Virus record (IMG/VR): IMGVR_UViG_3300009703_000011
Strand: one strand, 5' to 3'
Length of the DNA stretch: 20,000 bases
Origin: an uncultured virus (IMG/VR IMGVR_UViG_3300009703_000011)
Taxonomy: Duplodnaviria > Heunggongvirae > Uroviricota > Caudoviricetes
Part shown: positions 1 to 16,783 of the stretch, piece after piece
Layout: every line of letters begins with the position of its first letter
Numbering within the stretch: position 1 is the stretch's first letter
Made by a program: the position numbers and the translations under genes
The notes under the pieces: generated by a model
What the model was told of the DNA's origin: nothing
The model's input: the letters and a program-made list of their open reading frames with translations, nothing else
Databases searched by the model: none

Positions 1-114
1 TTAATCTATTGGTTGATAGATAAGAACGTTGTTGGAGCACTAGAAGCAGAGATATTAAAAATAAATAAACGTTATCCTAATATAAAAGACATTATATGTC
101 TTGAGTTAGACTAG
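1..114 (+). CDS. 3' end of an upstream gene (partial), hypothetical
   Basis: Frame 1 is open from base 1 (LIYWLIDKNVVGALEAEILKINKRYPNIKDIICLELD) to TAG at 112-114, on the same strand as all neighbours. Confidence 0.55.
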   Translation, partial: LIYWLIDKNVVGALEAEILKINKRYPNIKDIICLELD

Positions 115-136
115 CTCTACGTGTTATAGGTATAGC

Positions 137-466
137 ATGACTGAAGAATCCTTAATTTGTGAAGAAGAAGAGCAGGAGAATGCTAATCAAGCTCTCCAAG
201 AGTTACTGGATGTCCTGAGAAAAAGAAATCTACGAACACAAGATTTAGTAGTTGTCTATGGAAATTTAGGATATGCACTAGGAGCCTCAATTGAAGGAGT
301 TGACCAGAGTACTGGTGGTCCTTCAATGCAAGAGCTACAAGAACAGTATTACACAGAGCCAACCCTTGGAGTATCTCTTATGCTTCAAGGCTACTTAGTT
401 ACATCTTGGTATAGCCAAGTGAATGATATGATAGTTGATCTACCCAAGGAGAATAAAGATGACTAA
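137..466 (+). CDS. hypothetical protein, acidic
   Basis: 109-aa ORF overlapping the start of the next gene by 8 nt; no recognisable motif. Confidence 0.75.
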   Translation: MTEESLICEEEEQENANQALQELLDVLRKRNLRTQDLVVVYGNLGYALGASIEGVDQSTGGPSMQELQEQYYTEPTLGVSLMLQGYLVTSWYSQVNDMIVDLPKENKDD

Positions 467-989
467 ACGACCATTACAATACCCAATTTATAAAGGTGTC
501 AAAGGAAACTGGGGCGCACTTCAGTTTAACTTTCAAGCACCTCACTACTACAGAGACAGAGAGAAGGATTTTACAGGCAGGATAGCTCTGGATGCCTCTG
601 GAAAGATTGAAGATGGTTGGCGCCAGAGAGAAGGTGCTGTCTTTGTCGAAGCAGCTACTGCTACTGGACCTAATATTTATGATTGGGAAAACAAGATTAC
701 TTTTGCATGTTCAGTAACTGACATGGGTAAATTGATTCTTGGTCTTACCACTGGTGATAGTACAGACATCATGCATGACCCCGGAGCCAGAGGCCCAAAC
801 GAAGGGAAAGTTCGTAAGCACCTAAAGCTTTATTCTAGTAAGGGGATCACCAAGGGTGGTTGCATGATCACTGTTAGTCTTCAGGAAGGAGATAAGAACA
901 TGGAGCACAAGATTCCAATGAGTCCTGATGAATGCCTTGTCTTGAGACAACTCCTACTTACGGCTGTCTCTAAAGCTCTTGCATGGTGA
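459..989 (+). CDS. Whirly-family single-stranded DNA-binding protein
   Basis: Start moved to ATG 459 (SD AAGGAG 446-451). Motifs YPIYKG..GAL, REG, YDW..K..F..SVTDMG, HDP, EGKVRKHLK, IP...E..VL and a terminal W are colinear with plant WHY proteins as I recall them (YSIYKGKAAL, YDWSRKQVFSLSVTEIG, FHDP, EGRVRKVLK, LLGW). Confidence 0.85.
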   Translation: MTKRPLQYPIYKGVKGNWGALQFNFQAPHYYRDREKDFTGRIALDASGKIEDGWRQREGAVFVEAATATGPNIYDWENKITFACSVTDMGKLILGLTTGDSTDIMHDPGARGPNEGKVRKHLKLYSSKGITKGGCMITVSLQEGDKNMEHKIPMSPDECLVLRQLLLTAVSKALAW

Positions 990-992
990 TAC

Positions 993-1628
993 ATGACTGA
1001 TGAATATGAGTTAGATGAAAGACTTAGGCTCATCTATAACTTTGCATCTGATATCGTAGCCATAGAGAAGGATACCCTTTCAATAGGGATGAGAGACAAG
1101 CTGTCACTTCTTAAGGATATGGCAGATGTGGAACAGTTTACGCTGTCTGAGGTCCAAGATATATTTGAAACCAAAGAGGATGACTTATCTAAAAATAACA
1201 TAATAATTTCTTGTGATGCTTCCATAACAAAAAATCCAGGTGGCCAAGTTGCTGTTGGTTTTGTAATTAGATTTCCTAGTGAAGATAAGCTTCCTACTAT
1301 CAAGATGTCTAACTTTACAACCTCGAAGACTAATAACACAGGTGAATATGACGCTATCTATGAAGCGCTAGTCTTCTTGTTTAATCATCATAACAGACCC
1401 AAGCACGAGGTTGTTGTTTACAGTGACAGTAAGTTAGTTGTAGAACAACTGAAGGGTAACTGGGAAGTAAATGATAAGACCCTGAAAAGAAAATGTGAAT
1501 CAATTCATGAGCTAGTATCAGAAGGTCCCGTGCCCGTATCTATTCGTTGGGCACCAAGGAACTCAACACCAGACCTGGCAGAAGCCAACTTCCTAGCACA
1601 AGATAAGAATAAAGTCCCTAGACACTAG
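993..1628 (+). CDS. RNase HI-like protein with N-terminal extension
   Basis: CDAS..NPG, TNNTGEY, YSDSKLVVEQL.G.W.V and W.PR..N/S..A..LA motifs of the archaeal/actinobacterial-type RNase HI family; the fourth acidic residue appears as Asn (ANFLA). Confidence 0.85.
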   Translation: MTDEYELDERLRLIYNFASDIVAIEKDTLSIGMRDKLSLLKDMADVEQFTLSEVQDIFETKEDDLSKNNIIISCDASITKNPGGQVAVGFVIRFPSEDKLPTIKMSNFTTSKTNNTGEYDAIYEALVFLFNHHNRPKHEVVVYSDSKLVVEQLKGNWEVNDKTLKRKCESIHELVSEGPVPVSIRWAPRNSTPDLAEANFLAQDKNKVPRH

Positions 1629-1639
1629 AGGTAAATACA

Positions 1640-1981
1640 ATGTTCTCTATTACTGGAATGTTTGCCATTCCAAGAGATCCTCATGTTGAGGTCTCAGCAG
1701 TTAGTACTGGGTCCTATATTAACTTTAAAGCTGTCACTCAGGCAAAGAATAAGGGTGATAAGGCAGTCTGGCACCACTGGGATGTTGCCCTATGGGTTCC
1801 AGATGACAAAGTCGAATACTGGAAAGACCAACTTGTATCTGGGAATGTATTTATAGTTGAGCATGCAAGTGTTACAACCTATCCGGTTCAGGATGGTAAG
1901 TATCACAACACCAAGATCAGACTTGAACATAATAAAGTTAAAAGATTAACCACGCCCATGTGGGCAGAAAGCAAGGGATAG
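1640..1981 (+). CDS. divergent SSB-like OB-fold protein
   Basis: SD GAGGT. The pattern G....RDP, F..V......K..WH...V.LW, L..G..F.VE resembles bacterial SSB; no acidic C-terminal tail. Confidence 0.6.
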   Translation: MFSITGMFAIPRDPHVEVSAVSTGSYINFKAVTQAKNKGDKAVWHHWDVALWVPDDKVEYWKDQLVSGNVFIVEHASVTTYPVQDGKYHNTKIRLEHNKVKRLTTPMWAESKG

Positions 1982-1983
1982 AT

Positions 1984-2493
1984 ATGACTGAAGAACTTAA
2001 AGACTTTTTGGATGGCGAAGAGTTGGAACCTGAAGACTTTTTCGAGATGGTTACGATCATGCCCAAGCGTAAGATTAAAATCTCTGCTTACCTTGAGGAT
2101 AAAGATGGTGAGCGTATCAGTCTTACTACCGTATCTAAAAATCTAAATAAATATATCAATAAACACATGACAAACGGTGAGAATACTCCTGTTAACTCTC
2201 AATTGTTTCCACTTATTAATCAGATGATGATCTCTTCTGTTCCAAGAAGTGTAGGCGTTGCAGTCTCTGGCTTCTTGTTTACAGCTCAGAGCAGTAGATA
2301 TGCACTCTCCATGTTTGGTTTAAACATTGCACTCTTGATGCAGTACATTCATAAGCATGAGTTAAAGATCGTAACTGAAGAAACACCAATCTCAGAGAAA
2401 CAACTAGAAGAGTATCTGGCAAGAGAAGAAGAAGCTGGCATTAGATTGGCAGATGCTATTGGAAACTTTTCAGATGAAGAGTATGAAAACTAG
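1984..2493 (+). CDS. hypothetical protein
   Basis: Probable start ATG 1984, 2 nt after the previous stop, with upstream AAGGGA; no motif recognised. Confidence 0.7.
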   Translation: MTEELKDFLDGEELEPEDFFEMVTIMPKRKIKISAYLEDKDGERISLTTVSKNLNKYINKHMTNGENTPVNSQLFPLINQMMISSVPRSVGVAVSGFLFTAQSSRYALSMFGLNIALLMQYIHKHELKIVTEETPISEKQLEEYLAREEEAGIRLADAIGNFSDEEYEN

Positions 2494-3049
2494 ACATCTT
2501 CTTGAGGCAGAGTGGAGTCACTATAAGTTTCCAGTGAGGGGAATCCATATGAGACCTCAAGAAATGATATTACAAATCAGGCCAACCTACTCTACAAGAG
2601 GTTATTACGAAAAAGATTCTTCACGAATGGTTGATAGACTACATGTTCTACACTACCTATATAATAGACAGGCATACTTTTCTAGTTTAGAAGACTACTA
2701 TATTGAAGTAGTCGACAGGGGTTTTGGCAAAACTGGTCAACATAGTGTACAACTTGTAATAACTGATACTGCAGACTACTGGCTCAACTCTCTAGTTAAC
2801 TACTATAAAGTTAATAAATTTTGTTTAGGTTTAGTGCCGCACCATCTTCACAGTGCAACTCTCAAACATTTAAATCCCGGTAGGATAGATAAGATAGTTC
2901 CGATCGGCAAGGAGAAGTACCATGTCTATGTTGATATGCCATATATCAGACACATTCGTGACTCTGGTGCATCTCTACTCTTAGAGGATATGAACTCAGA
3001 TCATCTAAGCAATACGAGGCCTGACTTGCCACTGGATCTAGAAGAATGA
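2483..3049 (+). CDS. hypothetical protein
   Basis: Probable start ATG 2483 overlapping the previous stop; ATGA overlap with the next gene. Confidence 0.7.
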   Translation: MKTRHLLEAEWSHYKFPVRGIHMRPQEMILQIRPTYSTRGYYEKDSSRMVDRLHVLHYLYNRQAYFSSLEDYYIEVVDRGFGKTGQHSVQLVITDTADYWLNSLVNYYKVNKFCLGLVPHHLHSATLKHLNPGRIDKIVPIGKEKYHVYVDMPYIRHIRDSGASLLLEDMNSDHLSNTRPDLPLDLEE

Positions 3050-3633
3050 AATTAATTCAAGCATTTGTATGGAAGGCTAGTGATTCAGATAAGGAACTGG
3101 TAACAAGGCTTATTAGGGCTGTCTATCCTGAGGATCCAGTACTGGTTACAGATGTATTGTTAGACAATAAAGGTGACAGCTTCACTGGTGATGTCCTGCT
3201 TGCCTTTGGTACAAGAGCATACAATATAGTATCTACCGTTGTCGAACAGAATGTCTATCAATTCACGACTCCAGCAAAGCTAAGGTCCTTACCTGAAAAT
3301 AAGATTGCAAGATCTCAGACATTTGAAAAGCTAAAGAAGCTGGCAGAAGAAAAAGTTCAAGTAGAAGATGTAACTCTTACAGATAAAGAATTAGAAAAGT
3401 TCTTATCTAAACAGTTGGTTACTCTACAAAAGTCTTTGAAAGCTAAGGAGACTAAGTACTGGAAAGCTACAACAGCAACTGGGAAGTCTATTGCTATAAC
3501 ACTTTTACCAAATACAAAAGTCCCCAACTGTGAAATCATATTAACCTTTGAAGAGCTGTTCGCTGCCAAATATGCAGTAGAAGCTCTAGGCGTCGACTCT
3601 CTAACCCTTACAGGAAAACAAGAAAATGAGTAA
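3046..3633 (+). CDS. hypothetical protein (weak UDG/HolD-like N-terminal half)
   Basis: 195-aa ORF coupled to neighbours on both sides. VLLAFGTRA and TP.KL...P..K..R...F..L loosely recall the UDG-like alpha/beta fold. Confidence 0.7.
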   Translation: MKLIQAFVWKASDSDKELVTRLIRAVYPEDPVLVTDVLLDNKGDSFTGDVLLAFGTRAYNIVSTVVEQNVYQFTTPAKLRSLPENKIARSQTFEKLKKLAEEKVQVEDVTLTDKELEKFLSKQLVTLQKSLKAKETKYWKATTATGKSIAITLLPNTKVPNCEIILTFEELFAAKYAVEALGVDSLTLTGKQENE

Positions 3634-5365
3634 AGTACTTTATGAAAACTCTATGGAAGAGATTGGTGTAGCAGTTAGGTCACTAGCTCCTTACGTCTGG
3701 GTTCGTACACACGAAGAATCACGTTTCATTGGTGATTTTAATCAGCTAATGACACGTGCCAAGCGTAAGGTTTATGTGTGGTCAATCTGTCAAGGCATTA
3801 CATCTCCCGAAATCTCACTCACTGGTGAGAAGAGCACTGGGATGTTTGCTGGAACAGAAAATCCACAAAAAGCTTTAGATCTCATCTCCACCATGCAGAA
3901 AGATGAAAAAACCTGTCCTAACGGTATCGTTATTGTCATGAGAGATCCCATGATGATACTTCAGGGTCCCATAATTAGGCAGTTTAGAGATTACTACAAT
4001 CACCTGTCGGGTGGTCAGATTACTGTCCTATTCCTATCTTCTGAGCTAGGACATGGACCTGGTGGTAAGAATGCTGGTCTCCCAGCCTCTATACAGAAAC
4101 AGGTTACTGTTATAGATTATGGCTTGCCACTTCTTGATGGTATCGGTGAAGAACTACGTGGTTTAATTAGAAGTGCATCAAGAAGGAATGCTCCAGATGC
4201 TAAGATGCCGAAAGAGCAGCAAGAAAAATACAGGGCACAGCTAGAGAAGTTTAAGTTTACCAAGGAACAGTATTTTGAATTCTCACGTGCTCTTCAAGGT
4301 TTAACTATCGAAGAGGTCAGAGTCGCAGCTTCTAGCTGTTTGCACCACCTTAAAACACTTGATACAGCCTTTCTTCTCAGGTCTAAGAAGCAGATTATTT
4401 CTAGGTCAGATATTCTAGAGTACCTAGATCACTCTGTGAACATGGAAGATGTCGGAGGGATGGATCTTGTTAAGGATTTCTTTGAAGACTATACTGACTG
4501 TCACTCAGAAGAAGCACAAGCTTTCGGTGCAGAACCACTCAAGGCAGTTCTTACTGTAGGTATTCCTGGCTGTGGTAAGAGTTTGACCTGTAAGGCTGTT
4601 GCTAATCAGTGGAAGCTACCTCTTATTCGTATGGATATGGGTAAAGTAATGGCTGGTATCGTGGGTGCTAGTGAATCACGAATGCGTCAAGCTATCGCAC
4701 AAGTAGAAGCAGTTTCTCCATGTGTATTGTGGCTAGATGAGATTGAGAAGAGCATGTCAGGAACCAAATCATCTAACTTCAGTGATGGTGGTACCATGGC
4801 TCGTGTCTTCGGCACTCTCCTCACTGCTATGGAAGAGGGTATGACTGGTGTTACTATTATGGCTACGGCCAATGACATTAGTGCTCTTCCACCTGAGCTG
4901 ATTCGTCGGTTTGATGAGGTATTCTTTATTGACCTTCCTGGACCAGATGAGAGAAAGGAAATCTTTGCTATTCAGTTAAGGATGAAAAACTTTCAAGACT
5001 CTGACATCGATCTTGATCAGGTAGTAGAAGCTTCTGAAAACTATACTGGACATGAGATTGAAAAAGCTGTAAAACGAGGCATTACAAAAGCATTTAGATC
5101 AGAAGAGAAAGTTCTTACAACAGATCTAGTGGTAGAGTCCCTGAGAGACACGAAGCCTCTCTATGATACAGCACATGAGAATCTCAGTAAGATGAGAGAG
5201 AAGGCTCAGAATCGTTACAGGTTTGCATCTTCATGGGCAAAGATTCAAGGAGAAAAGTTAAAAGCAAAACAGAAGACAATGGATGTAAACGACATTGATC
5301 TGCCAGATATGAAAACAGAAAAGAGTAAATCATCTGATTTAGATAGTAATTTACTATTAGATTAA
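3626..5365 (+). CDS. Ycf46-like AAA+ ATPase (SpoVK/Ycf46/Vps4 family)
   Basis: N-terminal WVRTHEE.R, then VGGMD.VK, Walker A GIPGCGKS, Walker B VLWLDEIEK, SRH TAND...LPPELIRRFDE.FF.DLP. Confidence 0.92.
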   Translation: MSKVLYENSMEEIGVAVRSLAPYVWVRTHEESRFIGDFNQLMTRAKRKVYVWSICQGITSPEISLTGEKSTGMFAGTENPQKALDLISTMQKDEKTCPNGIVIVMRDPMMILQGPIIRQFRDYYNHLSGGQITVLFLSSELGHGPGGKNAGLPASIQKQVTVIDYGLPLLDGIGEELRGLIRSASRRNAPDAKMPKEQQEKYRAQLEKFKFTKEQYFEFSRALQGLTIEEVRVAASSCLHHLKTLDTAFLLRSKKQIISRSDILEYLDHSVNMEDVGGMDLVKDFFEDYTDCHSEEAQAFGAEPLKAVLTVGIPGCGKSLTCKAVANQWKLPLIRMDMGKVMAGIVGASESRMRQAIAQVEAVSPCVLWLDEIEKSMSGTKSSNFSDGGTMARVFGTLLTAMEEGMTGVTIMATANDISALPPELIRRFDEVFFIDLPGPDERKEIFAIQLRMKNFQDSDIDLDQVVEASENYTGHEIEKAVKRGITKAFRSEEKVLTTDLVVESLRDTKPLYDTAHENLSKMREKAQNRYRFASSWAKIQGEKLKAKQKTMDVNDIDLPDMKTEKSKSSDLDSNLLLD

Positions 5366-11481: not shown

Positions 11482-12419
11482 TAGTTTAAGTACACAGTAT
11501 GTATTCTATTCTAGATGGAGAGAATAGGATAGAAGCTCTCGTTAAGAAGGTTAAAGAATTAGGCATGAAACATTGCGCCCTTACAGATCATGGTACAATG
11601 ATGGGCATACTTGAGTTTTATAAAACTTGTAAGAAGTATGACATTAAACCTATCATGGGTGTAGAGGCATATATAACTGATGATGAAGATGGGATTCCGA
11701 AAGAGGAGAGAACAAGAGATAACAACCACCTTGTCATGGTGGCAGAAACTAATGAAGGTCTTAAGAACCTTTTTTGGCTTACCTCTAAGGCGCAGACCGA
11801 GAACTTCTATTTCAAACCAAGAATATCAAAAAAGAATCTTACACCTGAGAGAACCAAAGGAATAATTGTTTCCTCTGCTTGTCTTGGTGGACAAATTAAT
11901 AGGTGTGGTGGTTACAATCCTGAAACCAATATCTATGAAGGTCAAGATGAGATGGAGCGGTTGGCGAAGTGGTATTCTAAAACCTTCAATGGAAACTACT
12001 ACCTAGAGATTCAAGATAATGATGATGCACAACAGATTGCATATAACTCAGTCTTAAAAACAATCTCAGAGAAGAATAATATTCCCCTTGTTATTACATC
12101 GGATGCTCACTATACAGAACTTGAGAGTAGTGAGACTCATTCCTTTTTAATGGCAATGCAGTTTAAGAAAACATTACAGCAGTATGAAGAAGATGGAATC
12201 ATGAAGTATGGACCATGGTTCTATGTTCGGAGTCCAGATCAGATGTTAGAAGCTGCTAAGAAATATCAAAGTGAATCAGCATTTTGGAATACATGTGACA
12301 TAGCAAAAAGATGCAATGTTGACATTGAAATTGGTGTCTATAAAAACCCAGAGTTTGATATTAAAACTCAACCAGACTATGAAGACTTTAAAAGGTCTCA
12401 AGGAGAAGATGATGTCTGA
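11452..12419 (+). CDS. dnaE: DNA polymerase III alpha subunit, stand-alone PHP domain (5' segment interrupted by an 8-nt insert at 11482-11489)
   Basis: MQVTDFCHLH* (11452-11484) is followed in another frame by VHSMYSILDG (from 11490), TDHG, GVEAY, NNHL, SACLGG, YLEIQ, TSDAHY. The main ORF in the track is 11499-12419. Confidence 0.9.
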
Positions 12420-12681
12420 ATTATCAGATCGAATTCCAGTACTTCAAGAACAAGTTGTTGTTATTGTTGAGGCTGTACAGAAACAAAAAGAAGAAAAGAA
12501 GACAATGGCAAAGTCTTATAATGAAACAATCAAAGCTCTTGAAGCTGAACGTGATACCCTACTCCTTGAGCTTAACGCTACTAAGGATCAGGTTAAACAA
12601 GAAGCCTTGGTAGAGAAGGCTGATGATATCATCAAGGCTAATGCATCACCAGGTGGTGAAACTCACGAATTAATCCTCTAG
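12412..12681 (+). CDS. small coiled-coil hypothetical protein between dnaE fragments
   Basis: SD AGGAG 12401-12405, ATG 12412, overlapping the PHP stop; E/K-rich heptad character. Confidence 0.7.
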   Translation: MSELSDRIPVLQEQVVVIVEAVQKQKEEKKTMAKSYNETIKALEAERDTLLLELNATKDQVKQEALVEKADDIIKANASPGGETHELIL

Positions 12682-12690
12682 GGGGTAACT

Positions 12691-13059
12691 GTGGCAAAAA
12701 GAACAAGGCGGAAGAAGGGACCTGACGGTAATTTATATACAAAAGAACAGTGGAATAAAAAGTGTGGACCTGGAAGTGCTTCGAGTAATAGTTCAACAAT
12801 AGATATTAAAACGCAAGAACAGGTACAGAGAAATACCAATAAGAAACCTGTCATAGAGGAGAAAGCTAGTAAAACTGAGAAGAATAACGCACCAACACTT
12901 ATAGTTAGTTACGTATCTTCTAATGGAAACAGAATTACTAAATCTTTTCAATGTGCTTGTATCCAAATGAACGAAGACAAAACTACAGAGATGATGCTAT
13001 CAGGTCCAAAAACTAAGCTCCACTTATCTGTGGAGGCTGATGTTATAGAGGTACTCTAA
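12691..13059 (+). CDS. basic hypothetical protein between dnaE fragments
   Basis: GTG start after GGGGGT; 122 aa; its stop abuts the dnaE core ATG. Confidence 0.7.
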   Translation: MAKRTRRKKGPDGNLYTKEQWNKKCGPGSASSNSSTIDIKTQEQVQRNTNKKPVIEEKASKTEKNNAPTLIVSYVSSNGNRITKSFQCACIQMNEDKTTEMMLSGPKTKLHLSVEADVIEVL

Positions 13060-15825
13060 ATGAGTGAGCTGGATGACTACTATGTTTACAAGACAGAAAG
13101 GGGTCTTGCAGATCGTATCTCTAAACTCGCCTATGAAGTAGACGAGAAGGCTTACAAGGAGAGATTGGAATATGAAAACAAGATCATCATACAGATGGGT
13201 TACCCCGGCTACTTCCTCGTTGTACAGGACTTCATCAACTGGGCTAAGTCACAAGGTATCCTCGTTGGGCCTGGACGGGGGTCTGGTGCTGGTGCTCTGG
13301 CTTGCTTTGCCACAGGTATTACTAACGTTGACCCTATTCCCTTTGGGCTCATTTTTGAACGGTTTCTTAATCCTGCTCGGGTTTCAATGCCTGATCTTGA
13401 CATTGATTTCCCGAAAGGGCGACGTGAAGAAGTCATTCAGTATGTGAGAGATAAGTATGGAGCAGACAAGGTTGCACAGATAGGAACCTTTGGAACTCTA
13501 AAAGCTAAGGCATCGATCAAGGCTGCTTGCAGAACTCTTGGACTTCCTATACCCATGGGTGAAGAGCTAACGAAAATGTGGCCGAAGCCAGAACATGGTA
13601 AGGAGGTTAGCTTTCAGAATGCTCTAACTACTGTGCCAGATCTTAATCGTACCTACCGCTCCGCAGGGGAGAGGGGTGAGATTTTAAGATGGGCAGAGAA
13701 GATCGAGAACAGGATTTCATCTTTTGGAATCCATGCTAGTGGTGTTGTTATAGCCAATGAACCACTGCACGAAACAGTTCCCCTGGCTCTTGGTAAGAGA
13801 GGGGAGATTGTAACCCAGTGGGACATGAACAGAGTTGAAGACGTTGGTCTTATCAAGTTTGACTTTCTTGGTTTGAAGAACTTAGATGTAGTTCAGTTAG
13901 CTGTAGATCTAATCAAGAAACAAAAGAAGATTGAAATTGATATAGAGAATATACCTCTAGATGATGAGAAGGTTTATTCTAATCTACGTAAGGGAGATAA
14001 CATTGGCGTCTTCCAGCTGGAGTCTTCTAGTGGTATGAAGGATCTGTTAGTTAAGATCAAACCATCATGCCTAGAAGATCTTACAGCACTTGTAGCAATC
14101 TATAGACCTGGACCACTTGGTTCAGATAAGCTTGAAGATTATTTAAGCTGGAGAGCTGGAACTTCAGAACCAGTTTATTACCACCCAGACTTAGAGCCTA
14201 TCCTGAAGTCAACTGGTGGGTGGATTATATATCAAGAACAAGTACTTAGAATAGCAAGAGACTTGGCAGGTTATGATCTTGCCCAGGCTGATCTTCTTCG
14301 TCGAGCTGTTGGTAAGAAGAAGGCTAGTGAGATGCTTAAGCATAGAGCTGGGTTCCTGAAGGGAATAAAAGCTAATGGTTATACAGAAAACCTAGGTATA
14401 ACTCTTTGGAATGCCATAGAGATTTTTAGTTCATATGGGTTCAACAAAACAGTTGACAAGGATACCTTAGTTGCTACCGTAAATGGAGACAAGAGAATAG
14501 AGGACTGCTCAGAGCTAGATACTGTTTTCACAGTTGCCAACTCTGGAGAGATTGTTCAGTCGCAAGTTGTTGCACTTCACGATCATGGAAACGTACCTCT
14601 TTGGGAGGTAGAGTTTGATGATGGAAGTATCGAAAGATGTACTCTTGACCACAAGTGGCTTACAATATTTGGACAGCAACCACTTTGGAGAATCCTCCAA
14701 GAAGATATCCAGACCTTCGGGAACAATTCCCAAGAGTCAGGCAACAAGTTTGCCGAGGTCGGGAAAAAGGTCTATCCGAGTCAGGACAACACACTGTGGA
14801 ATAACAAAAACACAAACAATCAAAGCTTTGAGGGACCATCAAAGGCAGTGCCTGGAATGTCAAAGGCTAAGGAAGTTGATTCGTCAAAAGACGAGGGCCA
14901 AGTCAAACAGGTCTTCCCATATGAGAAAGATAGCATCCGAAACAGCAAAGAAAACCTCAGCAAGACCAGAGATACAATTACAAAGAGCGAAGGTTCTAAA
15001 GAAGTGGAGAGATTCACACCCAGAACAGTTCGCTTTGATAAAAGAAAAAGCACACTCATCTCCAAAGCTCTCCAAGATGGAGATTTGGTTACAACCTATT
15101 CTCCAGAAGCTGGGGTTTGTTCGCTCAGTCCAACTGAGGTGTGGTATAGAAAGGAAGCAAGTAGATTTCGTAAATCACTCAATGCAAACAGCAATAGAAG
15201 TGGATGGACCTTGGCATTTTCTACCGGTGAATGGAGAAGAGAACCTAAAGAAAGTTCAAGACCGGGATCGAATGTTAGAACAAGAGATTATTCATCGAAA
15301 CTGGAGGCTGATTCGTCTTTCAATGGAGAACTTTCACTCCTCTGGGAGACTTACAAAAATAAGCTTGGAACACCTTTTCAGTTTAATAGAAAGCAAACAA
15401 TATCCTCCAATCTTACTGGTAGGAAAGTTATACGAATCAGTTATAAAGGAATCTGCCAAGGTTATGATCTTGAAGTAGATCATCCAGCACATAACTTCTT
15501 GCTTAGCTCTGGTCTTTGCTGCTCTAATAGCCATGCCGTTGCCTATGCTACAATCTCTTACTGGTGTGCCTATCTTAAAACGTACCATCCTGTTGAATTC
15601 ATGACTGCTGCTCTTACAATGGATAGTGGGAACATGGATCAGATGATTATCTATTTACAAGAGTGTAAGAGGATTGGTATCCAGGTTCTCCCTCCTGATA
15701 TTAATGAGTCTGATTTGAATTTTACTCCAGTTGCCAACACTGTTAGGTTTGGCTTCACTGCGATAAAGAACTTGCGTGAAGGACCAGGTAATCACATAAT
15801 TGAGAAACGAAATGAAGAAATTTAA
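13060..15825 (+). CDS. dnaE: DNA polymerase III alpha subunit catalytic core, intein-containing
   Basis: GPGRGSGAG, FERFLNP.R.SMPDLDIDF, GIHASGV, KFDFLGL, GVFQLES, YRPGP, IYQEQ, AD.LRRA.GKK; YGFNK/SHA.AY is rejoined after intein removal. Confidence 0.95.
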   Translation: MSELDDYYVYKTERGLADRISKLAYEVDEKAYKERLEYENKIIIQMGYPGYFLVVQDFINWAKSQGILVGPGRGSGAGALACFATGITNVDPIPFGLIFERFLNPARVSMPDLDIDFPKGRREEVIQYVRDKYGADKVAQIGTFGTLKAKASIKAACRTLGLPIPMGEELTKMWPKPEHGKEVSFQNALTTVPDLNRTYRSAGERGEILRWAEKIENRISSFGIHASGVVIANEPLHETVPLALGKRGEIVTQWDMNRVEDVGLIKFDFLGLKNLDVVQLAVDLIKKQKKIEIDIENIPLDDEKVYSNLRKGDNIGVFQLESSSGMKDLLVKIKPSCLEDLTALVAIYRPGPLGSDKLEDYLSWRAGTSEPVYYHPDLEPILKSTGGWIIYQEQVLRIARDLAGYDLAQADLLRRAVGKKKASEMLKHRAGFLKGIKANGYTENLGITLWNAIEIFSSYGFNKTVDKDTLVATVNGDKRIEDCSELDTVFTVANSGEIVQSQVVALHDHGNVPLWEVEFDDGSIERCTLDHKWLTIFGQQPLWRILQEDIQTFGNNSQESGNKFAEVGKKVYPSQDNTLWNNKNTNNQSFEGPSKAVPGMSKAKEVDSSKDEGQVKQVFPYEKDSIRNSKENLSKTRDTITKSEGSKEVERFTPRTVRFDKRKSTLISKALQDGDLVTTYSPEAGVCSLSPTEVWYRKEASRFRKSLNANSNRSGWTLAFSTGEWRREPKESSRPGSNVRTRDYSSKLEADSSFNGELSLLWETYKNKLGTPFQFNRKQTISSNLTGRKVIRISYKGICQGYDLEVDHPAHNFLLSSGLCCSNSHAVAYATISYWCAYLKTYHPVEFMTAALTMDSGNMDQMIIYLQECKRIGIQVLPPDINESDLNFTPVANTVRFGFTAIKNLREGPGNHIIEKRNEEI
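14449..15528 (+). mobile_element. intein (360 aa) in DnaE at YGFNK|SH
   Basis: Removing residues 464-823 restores YGFNKSHAVAY. Block A-like TVDKDTLV, block B CTLDHKW, block F GYDLEV..HNF, block G SGLCCSN|S. Confidence 0.9.
14618..15478 (+). CDS. DUF559/Vsr-like (EDxHD-type) endonuclease nested in the +1 frame inside the intein
   Basis: SKME..L...L..LGF, VDF......AIEVDG.WH, DRDR......NW.LIRL; N-terminal HCG...H...C..C; SD GGGAGGT 14603-14609, 8 nt before ATG 14618. Confidence 0.85.
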   Translation: MMEVSKDVLLTTSGLQYLDSNHFGESSKKISRPSGTIPKSQATSLPRSGKRSIRVRTTHCGITKTQTIKALRDHQRQCLECQRLRKLIRQKTRAKSNRSSHMRKIASETAKKTSARPEIQLQRAKVLKKWRDSHPEQFALIKEKAHSSPKLSKMEIWLQPILQKLGFVRSVQLRCGIERKQVDFVNHSMQTAIEVDGPWHFLPVNGEENLKKVQDRDRMLEQEIIHRNWRLIRLSMENFHSSGRLTKISLEHLFSLIESKQYPPILLVGKLYESVIKESAKVMILK

Positions 15826-16783
15826 GGACTTCTTTGATTTTTGTAAAAGAGTTGACACTGGGCTTATAAATAAGAAGAAGCTCGAATCCCTAATCTTATC
15901 AGGTGCTTTTGATTTTACACAGCAGACCAGAAGCACTCTGCTTCAGGCGCTAGAAGATGTTCTCGTTTTTAAATCAGAACGAAAGAAGTATGAAAAGAAA
16001 CTTGAGACCTTTCATAAAAAGACTGAGGCTTATCTAGAAAGACTTGAGGCTATAGAGAGGGACGAGAAGGGTGCTAATGGAAACAAGCTAAGACCTTTCA
16101 AGAAACCAGAAGAGCCTCTTGCTCCAGGTCAACCATCTTATGCACATGAAGAGGAGATGTCTCAGCAGCTCCTTCTGCAGAAAGAGAGAGAACTTACAGG
16201 GTTCTTTATTTCGGGTCATCCTCTTGACGGGTTTGGCTCTAGGATAAAGACTACTATAAGATCTTTAAGAGTTAATAAACCTGAGCAAATTGATTTTGTA
16301 TGTATAATTTCAGATACTACAATCAAAGAATCAAAGAAGAAACAAAGATATGCCTTTATCAGGTTTGAAGATTTAACTGGAACCATAGAAGGTGTAATCT
16401 GGCCATGGTTATATAAGAAGAACAAACATAATATTCTACCCAACATACCAGTCAGGGTTGCTGCGAAGGTTACTTATACTGAAGCAGAACCAGATGAAGA
16501 CTCTGTAGAGGATGAAGTAATTCCATATTTGGATATCAAACACATAGAACTATTGGAGAAGCCTGCACAGGAGAGTATGAATATTAGGATGGATGTTCCA
16601 CTAACAATGAAAAACATTTCTTCTGTAAAGAAAATTCTTGAAAAGAATGCTGGCCAATCAGGTGTTGCGTCTGTTAGGTTTTCATCTAACTCAGGCAGTA
16701 CGCTTGGTGTACCCAAGGTTTATGGGATTAATAAAAATGGAAGAACAATTAGAACAGAAGTCCTCAGAGTTACAAAACAGTGA
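15812..16783 (+). CDS. dnaE: DNA polymerase III alpha subunit C-terminal part (HhH + OB fold)
   Basis: FKDFFDFCKRV, NKKKLESLI.SGAFD, KERELTGFFISGHPL, AFIRFEDLTG.IE..IWP. It is in the +1 frame relative to the core; ATG 15812 (or TTG 15800). Confidence 0.9.
   Translation: MKKFKDFFDFCKRVDTGLINKKKLESLILSGAFDFTQQTRSTLLQALEDVLVFKSERKKYEKKLETFHKKTEAYLERLEAIERDEKGANGNKLRPFKKPEEPLAPGQPSYAHEEEMSQQLLLQKERELTGFFISGHPLDGFGSRIKTTIRSLRVNKPEQIDFVCIISDTTIKESKKKQRYAFIRFEDLTGTIEGVIWPWLYKKNKHNILPNIPVRVAAKVTYTEAEPDEDSVEDEVIPYLDIKHIELLEKPAQESMNIRMDVPLTMKNISSVKKILEKNAGQSGVASVRFSSNSGSTLGVPKVYGINKNGRTIRTEVLRVTKQ

Follow-up and report, generated by a model that had tools for sequence, protein, structure and literature searches.

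A predicted dual-coding intein in a phage-like dnaE gene, with a Vsr-like nuclease gene in its +1 frame

Known out-of-frame intein nucleases and the dnaE locus

The endonuclease of an intein need not be encoded in the splicing frame. In the cyanobacterial dnaX intein, a LAGLIDADG endonuclease is read out of frame, from the +2 frame (Phillips, DeSimone and Gogarten, bioRxiv 10.64898/2026.09.14.751524); that preprint credits the first proposal of an out-of-frame intein endonuclease to Gorbalenya (1998). Among the inteins of actinobacteriophages, antisense LAGLIDADG, antisense VSR-like and frame-3 endonuclease VII-like genes have been described (Gosselin, Arsenault and Gogarten, bioRxiv 10.1101/2025.01.02.630785), in an account that otherwise places VSR-like nucleases only with split inteins. 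Split inteins flanking a free-standing Vsr-like endonuclease gene are found in the “fractured genes” of Dassa et al. (2009; PMC2677866), which include three dnaE loci. The prototype of the EDxHD nuclease family, I-Bth0305I, has NUMOD motifs and is encoded by a group I intron within phage recA (Taylor et al., 2011; PMC3239194), and a hidden HNH endonuclease of the ShiLan type lies within a phage methylase gene (Arsenault et al., 2025; PMC11855218). The subject here is an intein in the dnaE (DNA polymerase III alpha) gene of a 20,000-nucleotide stretch from an uncultured virus (IMG/VR record IMGVR_UViG_3300009703_000011; Caudoviricetes), called the window below, always at its full length. It is very probably a non-canonical, dual-coding intein: one frame would encode a contiguous splicing element, and the +1 frame of the same strand a Vsr-like, EDxHD-type homing endonuclease translated on its own.

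With the dnaX intein, as its preprint presents it, the locus has in common a contiguous intein, an in-frame middle predicted to be disordered, a complete same-strand endonuclease open reading frame (ORF) in another frame, a Shine-Dalgarno (SD)-like motif, and purifying selection along the endonuclease frame, a set of features read there as secondary invasion of a mini-intein; unlike that LAGLIDADG gene of cyanobacteria, the nuclease here is of Vsr-like/EDxHD type, and the dnaE genes that contain it come from a phage-like contig, further viral contigs and gammaproteobacterial metagenome-assembled genomes (MAGs). The actinobacteriophage inteins likewise keep the endonuclease apart from the splicing frame, have VSR-like/EDxHD nucleases among their types and are proposed to have acquired them from free-standing phage endonuclease genes; in that account, however, the VSR-like genes are antisense and the only sense-strand type is endonuclease VII-like, whereas the window has its VSR-like gene in the +1 frame of the sense strand. 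The fractured genes of Dassa et al. have the same nuclease family, the same type of host gene and a nuclease ORF overlapping the intein parts, but stops break their host frame and splicing must be in trans; the intein frame of the window is continuous, with no stops, so cis-splicing is possible. I-Bth0305I, as described by Taylor et al., resembles the predicted nuclease in its C-terminal Vsr-like catalytic domain, in having conserved Asp/Glu/His residues and in a bipartite plan whose N-terminal region binds or would bind DNA; it differs in being encoded in an intron and in having NUMOD motifs in place of Cys/His finger-like motifs, and its solved chain is not matched at the sequence level. The ShiLan-type insertion, finally, also contains an out-of-frame endonuclease ORF and is open in the host frame, but its published description gives it no splicing domains, an HNH nuclease and no ribosome-binding site, and the insertion is thought to be retained in the protein.

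An earlier note on this DNA, made from the letters alone, had presented the arrangement as a departure from the rule of in-frame endonuclease domains. That novelty was overstated: as the papers above describe, both out-of-frame intein endonucleases and fractured dnaE genes with the same nuclease family are already published. For the particular combination of a contiguous DnaE intein with a Vsr-like nuclease in the +1 frame of its sense strand, no earlier report was found in the open-access literature (PubMed Central, bioRxiv), and it is this combination, with an EDxHD-type nuclease, that the window presents. What the case adds is a wide distribution, a link to fractured dnaE genes at one site, a reason within the genetic code for a fixed frame offset, and a natural nuclease-null allele. 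A layout called rare in the literature thus has a widely distributed example, on phage contigs and in dnaE of Thiomargarita, Beggiatoa, Thiothrix and methanotroph MAGs, and two published phenomena, out-of-frame intein nucleases and fractured genes, are joined at a single insertion site. Gene callers would overlook either the nuclease or the intein in such a locus. Inteins labelled endonuclease-less may conceal one; the Thiomargarita dnaE intein, the only intein without a recognised endonuclease domain in the account of Flood et al. (2016), is an example.

Two frames of one insert

The intein host is the core ORF of dnaE (13060..15825, + strand, as are all features given below), which has Pfam matches to DNA_pol3_alpha (E 1.8e-87), DNA_pol3_finger (4.1e-56) and HHH_6 (2.2e-11). 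Its conserved GFNK-SHA motif is split by an insert of 1080 nt (14449..15528; 360 codons, Thr1 to Asn360) that is open throughout in the dnaE frame, as had been claimed; intein-less relatives read FNKSH at this point, and the Ser+1 codon starts at 15529, directly after the intein. An alignment of the intein frame over 14 loci (A2) has a conserved N-terminal domain of ~95 aa and a conserved C-terminal domain of ~40-45 aa. In the window these are an N-terminal splicing domain at 14449..14733 (blocks A, N2/N3 and B, including TLDH; model residues 1-98) and a C-terminal one at 15412..15528 (block F, YDLEV..HNF, and block G, ..SN; model residues 325-365). In a structure model of the intein frame built with 13 relatives, the pLDDT score (predicted local distance difference test) is at least 90 in most 10-residue blocks of residues 1-98 and high over residues 325-365. 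The best structural match of this model is the NpuDnaB intein (4o1r_A; Z 20.0, root-mean-square deviation 1.9, 137 aligned), with NrdJ-1 (8ubs_A; Z 19.4) and gp41-1 (6riz_A; Z 19.0) as further matches; all 31 chains with Z>=8 have the HINT fold, either as inteins or as domains of other kinds (Hedgehog autoprocessing, bacterial intein-like, Vint). Between the two domains is a read-through linker (14734..15411; ~225 aa) that is stop-free, poorly conserved and modelled as disordered (residues 99-315, ~217 in all, pLDDT <50); across loci its length runs from ~80 to ~290 residues, with many gaps. The earlier note had called this middle motif-less, and neither Pfam (E<=1) nor PHROG (E<=0.1) gives a match to it.

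Eight residues, D343, E345, V346, H351, N352, S362, N363 and S364, are invariant across A2. Among them are the block F Asp (F:4) and His (F:13) by which class 1 inteins are defined, D343 and H351 of YDLEVDHPAHNF. Block B, with its Thr at B:7 and His at B:10, is CTLDHKW in the window; the His is invariant in the 14 loci, and the Thr is replaced by Ser in L008, L011, L015, L022 and L028. The C-terminal junction reads ...CCSN|SHA, and S-N-S, with the C-terminal Asn and Ser+1, is kept in all 14. Position 1 is Thr in the window and most dnaE copies and Ser in others; among the inteins compared (L001-L012, L042-L054), it is Cys in two of the three with hosts other than dnaE. Judged from these positions, the window intein and its relatives form a hydroxyl-nucleophile family, with Thr or Ser at position 1, Ser+1 and a penultimate Ser. 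The catalytic positions fit the class 1 definitions as given by Mills et al. (2014), the penultimate residue excepted. Splicing domains of this kind, which would tolerate a junk linker of ~225 residues, may interest engineers of cysteine-independent inteins.

The second reading of the insert is an ORF of 286 aa plus TAG in the +1 frame (14618..15478), a predicted homing-endonuclease gene, in which all the motifs listed by the earlier note were found again in place: HCG...HQRQCLEC, SKME, VDF, IEVDGPWH, DRDR and WRLIRL. It overlaps splicing blocks B (CTLDHKW) and F (GYDLEVD), as that note had also said. PHROG matches (phrog_559, 1.5e-11; phrog_9084, “homing endonuclease”, 1.8e-5) are joined by 43 homologues at E<=1e-3 (best E 3.7e-68, identity up to 53%), eight of which bear the source name very-short-patch-repair endonuclease. 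A structure model of the protein has a mean pLDDT of 79.9, rising above 90 in the nuclease domain (residues 145-285; 15050..15472). Aligned with VIA-align, this domain matches Vsr (1cw0_A, Z 11.8, 120 aligned; 1vsr, Z 11.2) and the catalytic domain of I-Bth0305I (3r3p_A, Z 9.1, 94 of 97 residues aligned), and Foldseek takes the nuclease model to 1cw0_A (E 6.9e-4, probability 1.00). E155, D183, E194, D196, H200 and D217 are invariant in a family alignment of 30 sequences and are candidates for the composite catalytic motif (E, D, x, H, D) of the EDxHD family. Further upstream, a Cys/His cluster (C60, H74, C78, C81; 14795..14860) is invariant in an alignment of 19 close homologues (A3) and modelled as a beta-hairpin and a helix; it may be a zinc finger that binds DNA. 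Two or three finger-like repeats of this sort occur in some relatives. Distant blastn and tblastn searches against 50,697 phage records gave no match, and a scan of viral contigs with the single nuclease protein confirmed no relative.

The nuclease ORF has putative start signals of its own. A TAG at 14609..14611 closes the +1 frame just upstream, the stop-to-stop span beginning at 14612, and an SD-like GGGAGGT (14603..14609), formed by the W-E-V codons of the intein, lies 8 nt before the nuclease ATG, where the earlier note had placed it. The same GGGAGGT, at the same spacing, precedes the nuclease start of L001, with GGGAGAT in L012 and AGGAGG in L002; in nine of 14 embedded loci, the start codon comes no more than 3 codons after the upstream stop. 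Independent initiation at this internal SD and ATG may be inferred from the arrangement.

Over the nuclease ORF, the intein frame has no stops in 288 codons, and the third frame has 28. When the nuclease codons were shuffled synonymously, the intein frame acquired 15.2 stops on average, and none of 2000 shuffles was stop-free. Stops in the intein frame arise as T|AA, T|AG or T|GA, and by the genetic code a change of NNT to NNC is always synonymous; because this change removes every such stop, an open intein frame costs the nuclease nothing. In the window nuclease, not one of 89 codons standing before AA, AG or GA ends in T, as against 54 of the 198 others. The conserved sequence follows the nuclease. 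In 91 pairwise comparisons, nucleotide identity at nuclease codon positions 1, 2 and 3 is 0.49, 0.54 and 0.37, and amino-acid identity over the same columns is 0.35 in the nuclease frame versus 0.21 in the intein frame. In the overlap, then, purifying selection appears to track the endonuclease frame. The suggestion of the earlier note that both frames are under selection is borne out in a modified form, with selection of unlike kinds: at the amino-acid level for the nuclease and, between the splicing blocks, apparently for mere freedom from stops in the intein frame.

Contiguous and fractured relatives

The composite design proposed in the earlier note, a contiguous intein with an off-frame linker, proved to be kept in 26 further distinct loci, 13 viral and 13 bacterial (27 with the window). 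An alignment-based scan of viral contigs yielded 41 loci, and in 16 of them (13 distinct) the nuclease is wholly within an ORF of 2-5 kb, at the same frame offset as in the window. Of the 13 long ORFs, ten are dnaE and three have an Intein_splicing match only. In L015, L022 and L028, the same intein-plus-nuclease layout occurs in long ORFs other than dnaE. A scan of species-representative genomes with A3, the alignment of closer homologues, gave 15 loci; 13 are close relatives, every one embedded in dnaE at the same FNK|...SN|SH site, and the remaining two, which match weakly (E 1e-4), are non-embedded. The MAGs holding the bacterial loci are labelled Thiotrichaceae, Thiomargarita, Beggiatoa, Ca. 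Parabeggiatoa, Ca. Venteria, Ca. Thiosymbion, Thiothrix, Methylococcaceae, Methyloprofundus, Competibacteraceae, Gammaproteobacteria, Pseudomonadota and uncultured proteobacterium. The absence of stops is common to all: each of the 13 distinct viral loci has none in the intein frame, against shuffled means of 6.6-20.8 and with no stop-free shuffle in 2000 per locus, and the 13 close bacterial loci also have none, against 6.7-16.2 expected, whereas the corresponding frame of 17 non-embedded nuclease relatives contains 22-71. That a single offset is found in all the embedded loci would be explained by stop removal being free for the nuclease.

Nine of the non-embedded relatives were examined and are fractured dnaE genes, broken at the same GYGFNx|S/C site. 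As far as each locus reaches, the N piece comprises the PHP, polymerase and finger domains and ends in an N-intein half; the C piece, seen in seven (L010, L013, L018, L021, L024, L027 and L030), starts with a C-intein half ending ...TSN|SH, and in L017 and L020 the N piece alone is seen. The nuclease gene is located between the pieces and overlaps them. The window does not have its host gene parted into two ORFs in this way, its intein frame being without a stop. In the window and the relatives examined, the nuclease is associated with inteins of a replication gene, within dnaE inteins either contiguous or split. A further intein, canonical and with its LAGLIDADG domain in frame, is present in several of these dnaE genes: it is upstream of the overprinted intein in L009 (aa 389-744 of ORF 3-4913) and L012 (aa 476-833 of ORF 3-4616), and upstream of the split intein in L027 (aa 22-369 of ORF 2-2608).

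The intein halves of the fractured L010 are similar to the contiguous inteins of L008 and L011. It is a tentative reading, with a little less than an even chance of being right, that a single mobile-element lineage, at one site, GFNK|SH, can pass back and forth between two states, the contiguous overprinted intein and the fractured dnaE gene. On entering a mini-intein, a free-standing EDxHD gene would leave either a split intein or a tolerated +1 overprint, the latter made feasible by synonymous NNT to NNC changes, which would account for the one offset in the 27 embedded loci. If this is so, the family would keep, in living sequences, both the route by which endonucleases enter inteins and the origin of split inteins, and the “endonuclease-less” dnaE intein of giant sulfur bacteria would be accounted for.

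Proposed mechanism, competing explanations and host gene

The ORFs, homology, predicted folds, frame statistics and distribution described above lead to a proposed mechanism in which splicing, independent initiation, cleavage and homing would be linked as follows. In frame 0, ribosomes would read the whole insert; in the resulting DnaE precursor, an unstructured linker of ~225 aa, itself the out-of-frame reading of the nuclease gene, would connect an N-terminal HINT half (~95 aa) to a C-terminal one (~40 aa). The halves would fold together and cis-splice as class 1 inteins do, through a Thr1 acyl shift, Ser+1 transesterification and Asn360 cyclisation, restoring GFNK-SHA in DnaE. In frame +1, the internal SD (14603) and ATG (14618) would start a free-standing homing endonuclease of 286 aa, made up of a CHCC finger, a helical region and the Vsr-like/EDxHD nuclease domain. 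This enzyme would cut intein-less dnaE at or near the insertion site, and repair would copy intein and nuclease in together. Selection would keep the amino-acid sequence of the nuclease and, in the intein frame, just the splicing blocks and the freedom from stops.

Several observations weigh against this mechanism or parts of it. On the side of the intein, the penultimate residue (G:6) is Ser in 14/14 loci and not the His of class 1, and Thr is unusual as a first residue. Mills et al. (2014) name Cys1 and Ser1 as step-1 nucleophiles in their text, and the legend of their Fig. 3 adds Thr to Cys and Ser; Ser at G:6 also occurs in class 2 inteins, and His there is a common helper, not an obligatory one. 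A literature search for precedents of Thr at intein position 1 returned “Thr1..” matches in one paper that refer to other residues. The intein-frame translation taken whole has no Pfam match at E<=1, to Intein_splicing or any other model, and no PHROG match at E<=0.1; among 13 related long ORFs, Intein_splicing spans the element in six (E 1.9e-4 to 3.3e-10), of which two are above the 35.8-bit cut-off. On the side of the nuclease, the DUF559/Vsr-like label of the earlier note stands as to the Vsr-like fold and the names of homologues and falls short as to family models: the Pfam DUF559 and Vsr models have no match at E<=1, and the best Pfam match, REase_MTES_1575 (E 0.054), reaches 14 bits where the cut-off is 38.2. 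When a profile of the nuclease family was compared with solved-structure sequences, no match was significant (best E 0.37, to a zinc-finger protein). An SD-like motif is unclear in ~10 of the 14 embedded loci examined. Residues 1-50 of the nuclease are modelled as disordered (pLDDT <50), and the protein is without the Cys/His ligands of a first finger that most close homologues keep: within 14618-14790, where alignment A1 (columns ~190-250) has the initial finger-like repeat KCG..H..C..C, there is an 11-residue gap. The copy in the window may thus be partly decayed. Also on this side is a variant in one of two subsurface-metagenome runs, from either of which the window could derive: in the contig from run X2, C>T at 15026 turns nuclease codon 137 from CAG to TAG and changes Thr to Ile in the intein frame. 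As it stops the nuclease only, a sister population holds a knocked-out nuclease in an intact intein frame, which fits a homing cycle in its decay phase, with dnaE still under selection. The X2 contig has a second difference, 15042 A>G, a silent change for the intein frame that gives K142R in the nuclease. Lastly, the integrity of the window's dnaE itself is uncertain because of a frame break at ~15800-15825.

How far do these points favour other explanations? The layout might be real and this particular nuclease no longer made, or inactive, so that what remains is an intein with a long junk linker, late in its homing cycle. The missing finger ligands, the disordered first 50 residues and the X2 nonsense allele point that way, as do truncated nucleases in the intact intein frames of L012:2727-3377 (a 145-codon remnant), the closest viral relative of the window at 52% identity, and of L049:2819-3400 (a 193-codon span). 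This is nevertheless unlikely for the window copy: its +1 frame has remained open for 286 codons in DNA of 42% G+C, in which the third frame has 28 stops, its SD and ATG are intact, its nuclease domain is modelled at pLDDT >90, and all the family-invariant residues (D183, E194, D196, H200, D217 and R233) are kept. A functional role for the middle of the intein frame, with selection on its amino acids, could be read into the ~225 codons that stay stop-free in 27 loci, but has next to no probability, since the least conserved nucleotide is intein codon position 1 (nuclease position 3), the region matches no family and is modelled at pLDDT <50, its length varies from ~80 to ~290 residues with many gaps, and L012 lacks ~140 of these residues with its frame still open.

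Both frames are carried by one mRNA, and many relatives are without an evident SD-like motif before the nuclease start, so that programmed +1 ribosomal frameshifting, yielding a nuclease fused to the N-extein and N-intein, might be proposed in place of independent initiation. Any such shift must come after the TAG, which closes the +1 frame 6 nt ahead of the ATG; neither a slippery nor a stimulatory element was seen, start codons hug the upstream stop in nine of 14 embedded loci, and family members are free-standing genes in the fractured dnaE loci, which together make frameshifting very improbable. A sequencing or assembly artefact, or a recent compensating pair of frameshifts concealing an ordinary in-frame endonuclease domain, would agree with the in-frame position of canonical intein endonucleases and with the unexplained frame break in the same gene, and the comparison was made with contigs, not raw reads. 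Yet the compensating indels that had been named as a danger were looked for and not found: in both runs, 14300-16000 is in a single contig (k-mer depth 10.5 and 19.9) without gaps or indels. The +1 offset is moreover common to the 13 distinct viral and 13 bacterial loci at 27-52% nuclease identity, in each of which stops beside blocks B and F close the nuclease frame, and homologues called as separate proteins begin and finish at the same places. An artefact is hardly conceivable on this evidence, and an intein with an independently started nuclease gene in its +1 frame is the preferred explanation.

The dnaE gene of the window is surrounded by a phage-like replication module with every gene on the + strand: RecA, a PHP-domain ORF, dNMP kinase, 5'-nucleotidase, ThyX and an AAA ATPase. 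The gene is in at least three pieces, not counting the intein. Its PHP domain is on an ORF of its own (11499..12419), and two ORFs without a Pfam match (12316..12681 and 12691..13059) stand between this and the polymerase core. At the other end, a +1 frame change at 15799-15825, in an A-rich run within the HhH domain, separates ORF 13060..15825 from ORF 15800..16783; in an intact relative, positions 1-95 correspond colinearly to the end of the former and 97-372 to residues 6-286 of the latter. Both assemblies have the break, and the closest relative, L059, is without it; a frameshift mutation, a programmed +1 shift and a split gene are candidate explanations.

Among the 11 closest relatives of the DnaE core (38-73% identity), nine have an unbroken FNKSH or FNRSH; in a tenth the site is taken by another intein, with Cys1, and the eleventh has a split intein 4 residues upstream. 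This sporadic distribution is consistent with a mobile element, and it reveals what would be the empty target. The distinct Cys1 intein (L057, ~3870 onward) is at the same FNK| site, and the split-intein N half (L062, ~2830 onward) is at ...FAKY|C; several distinct inteins thus use this one short dnaE motif.

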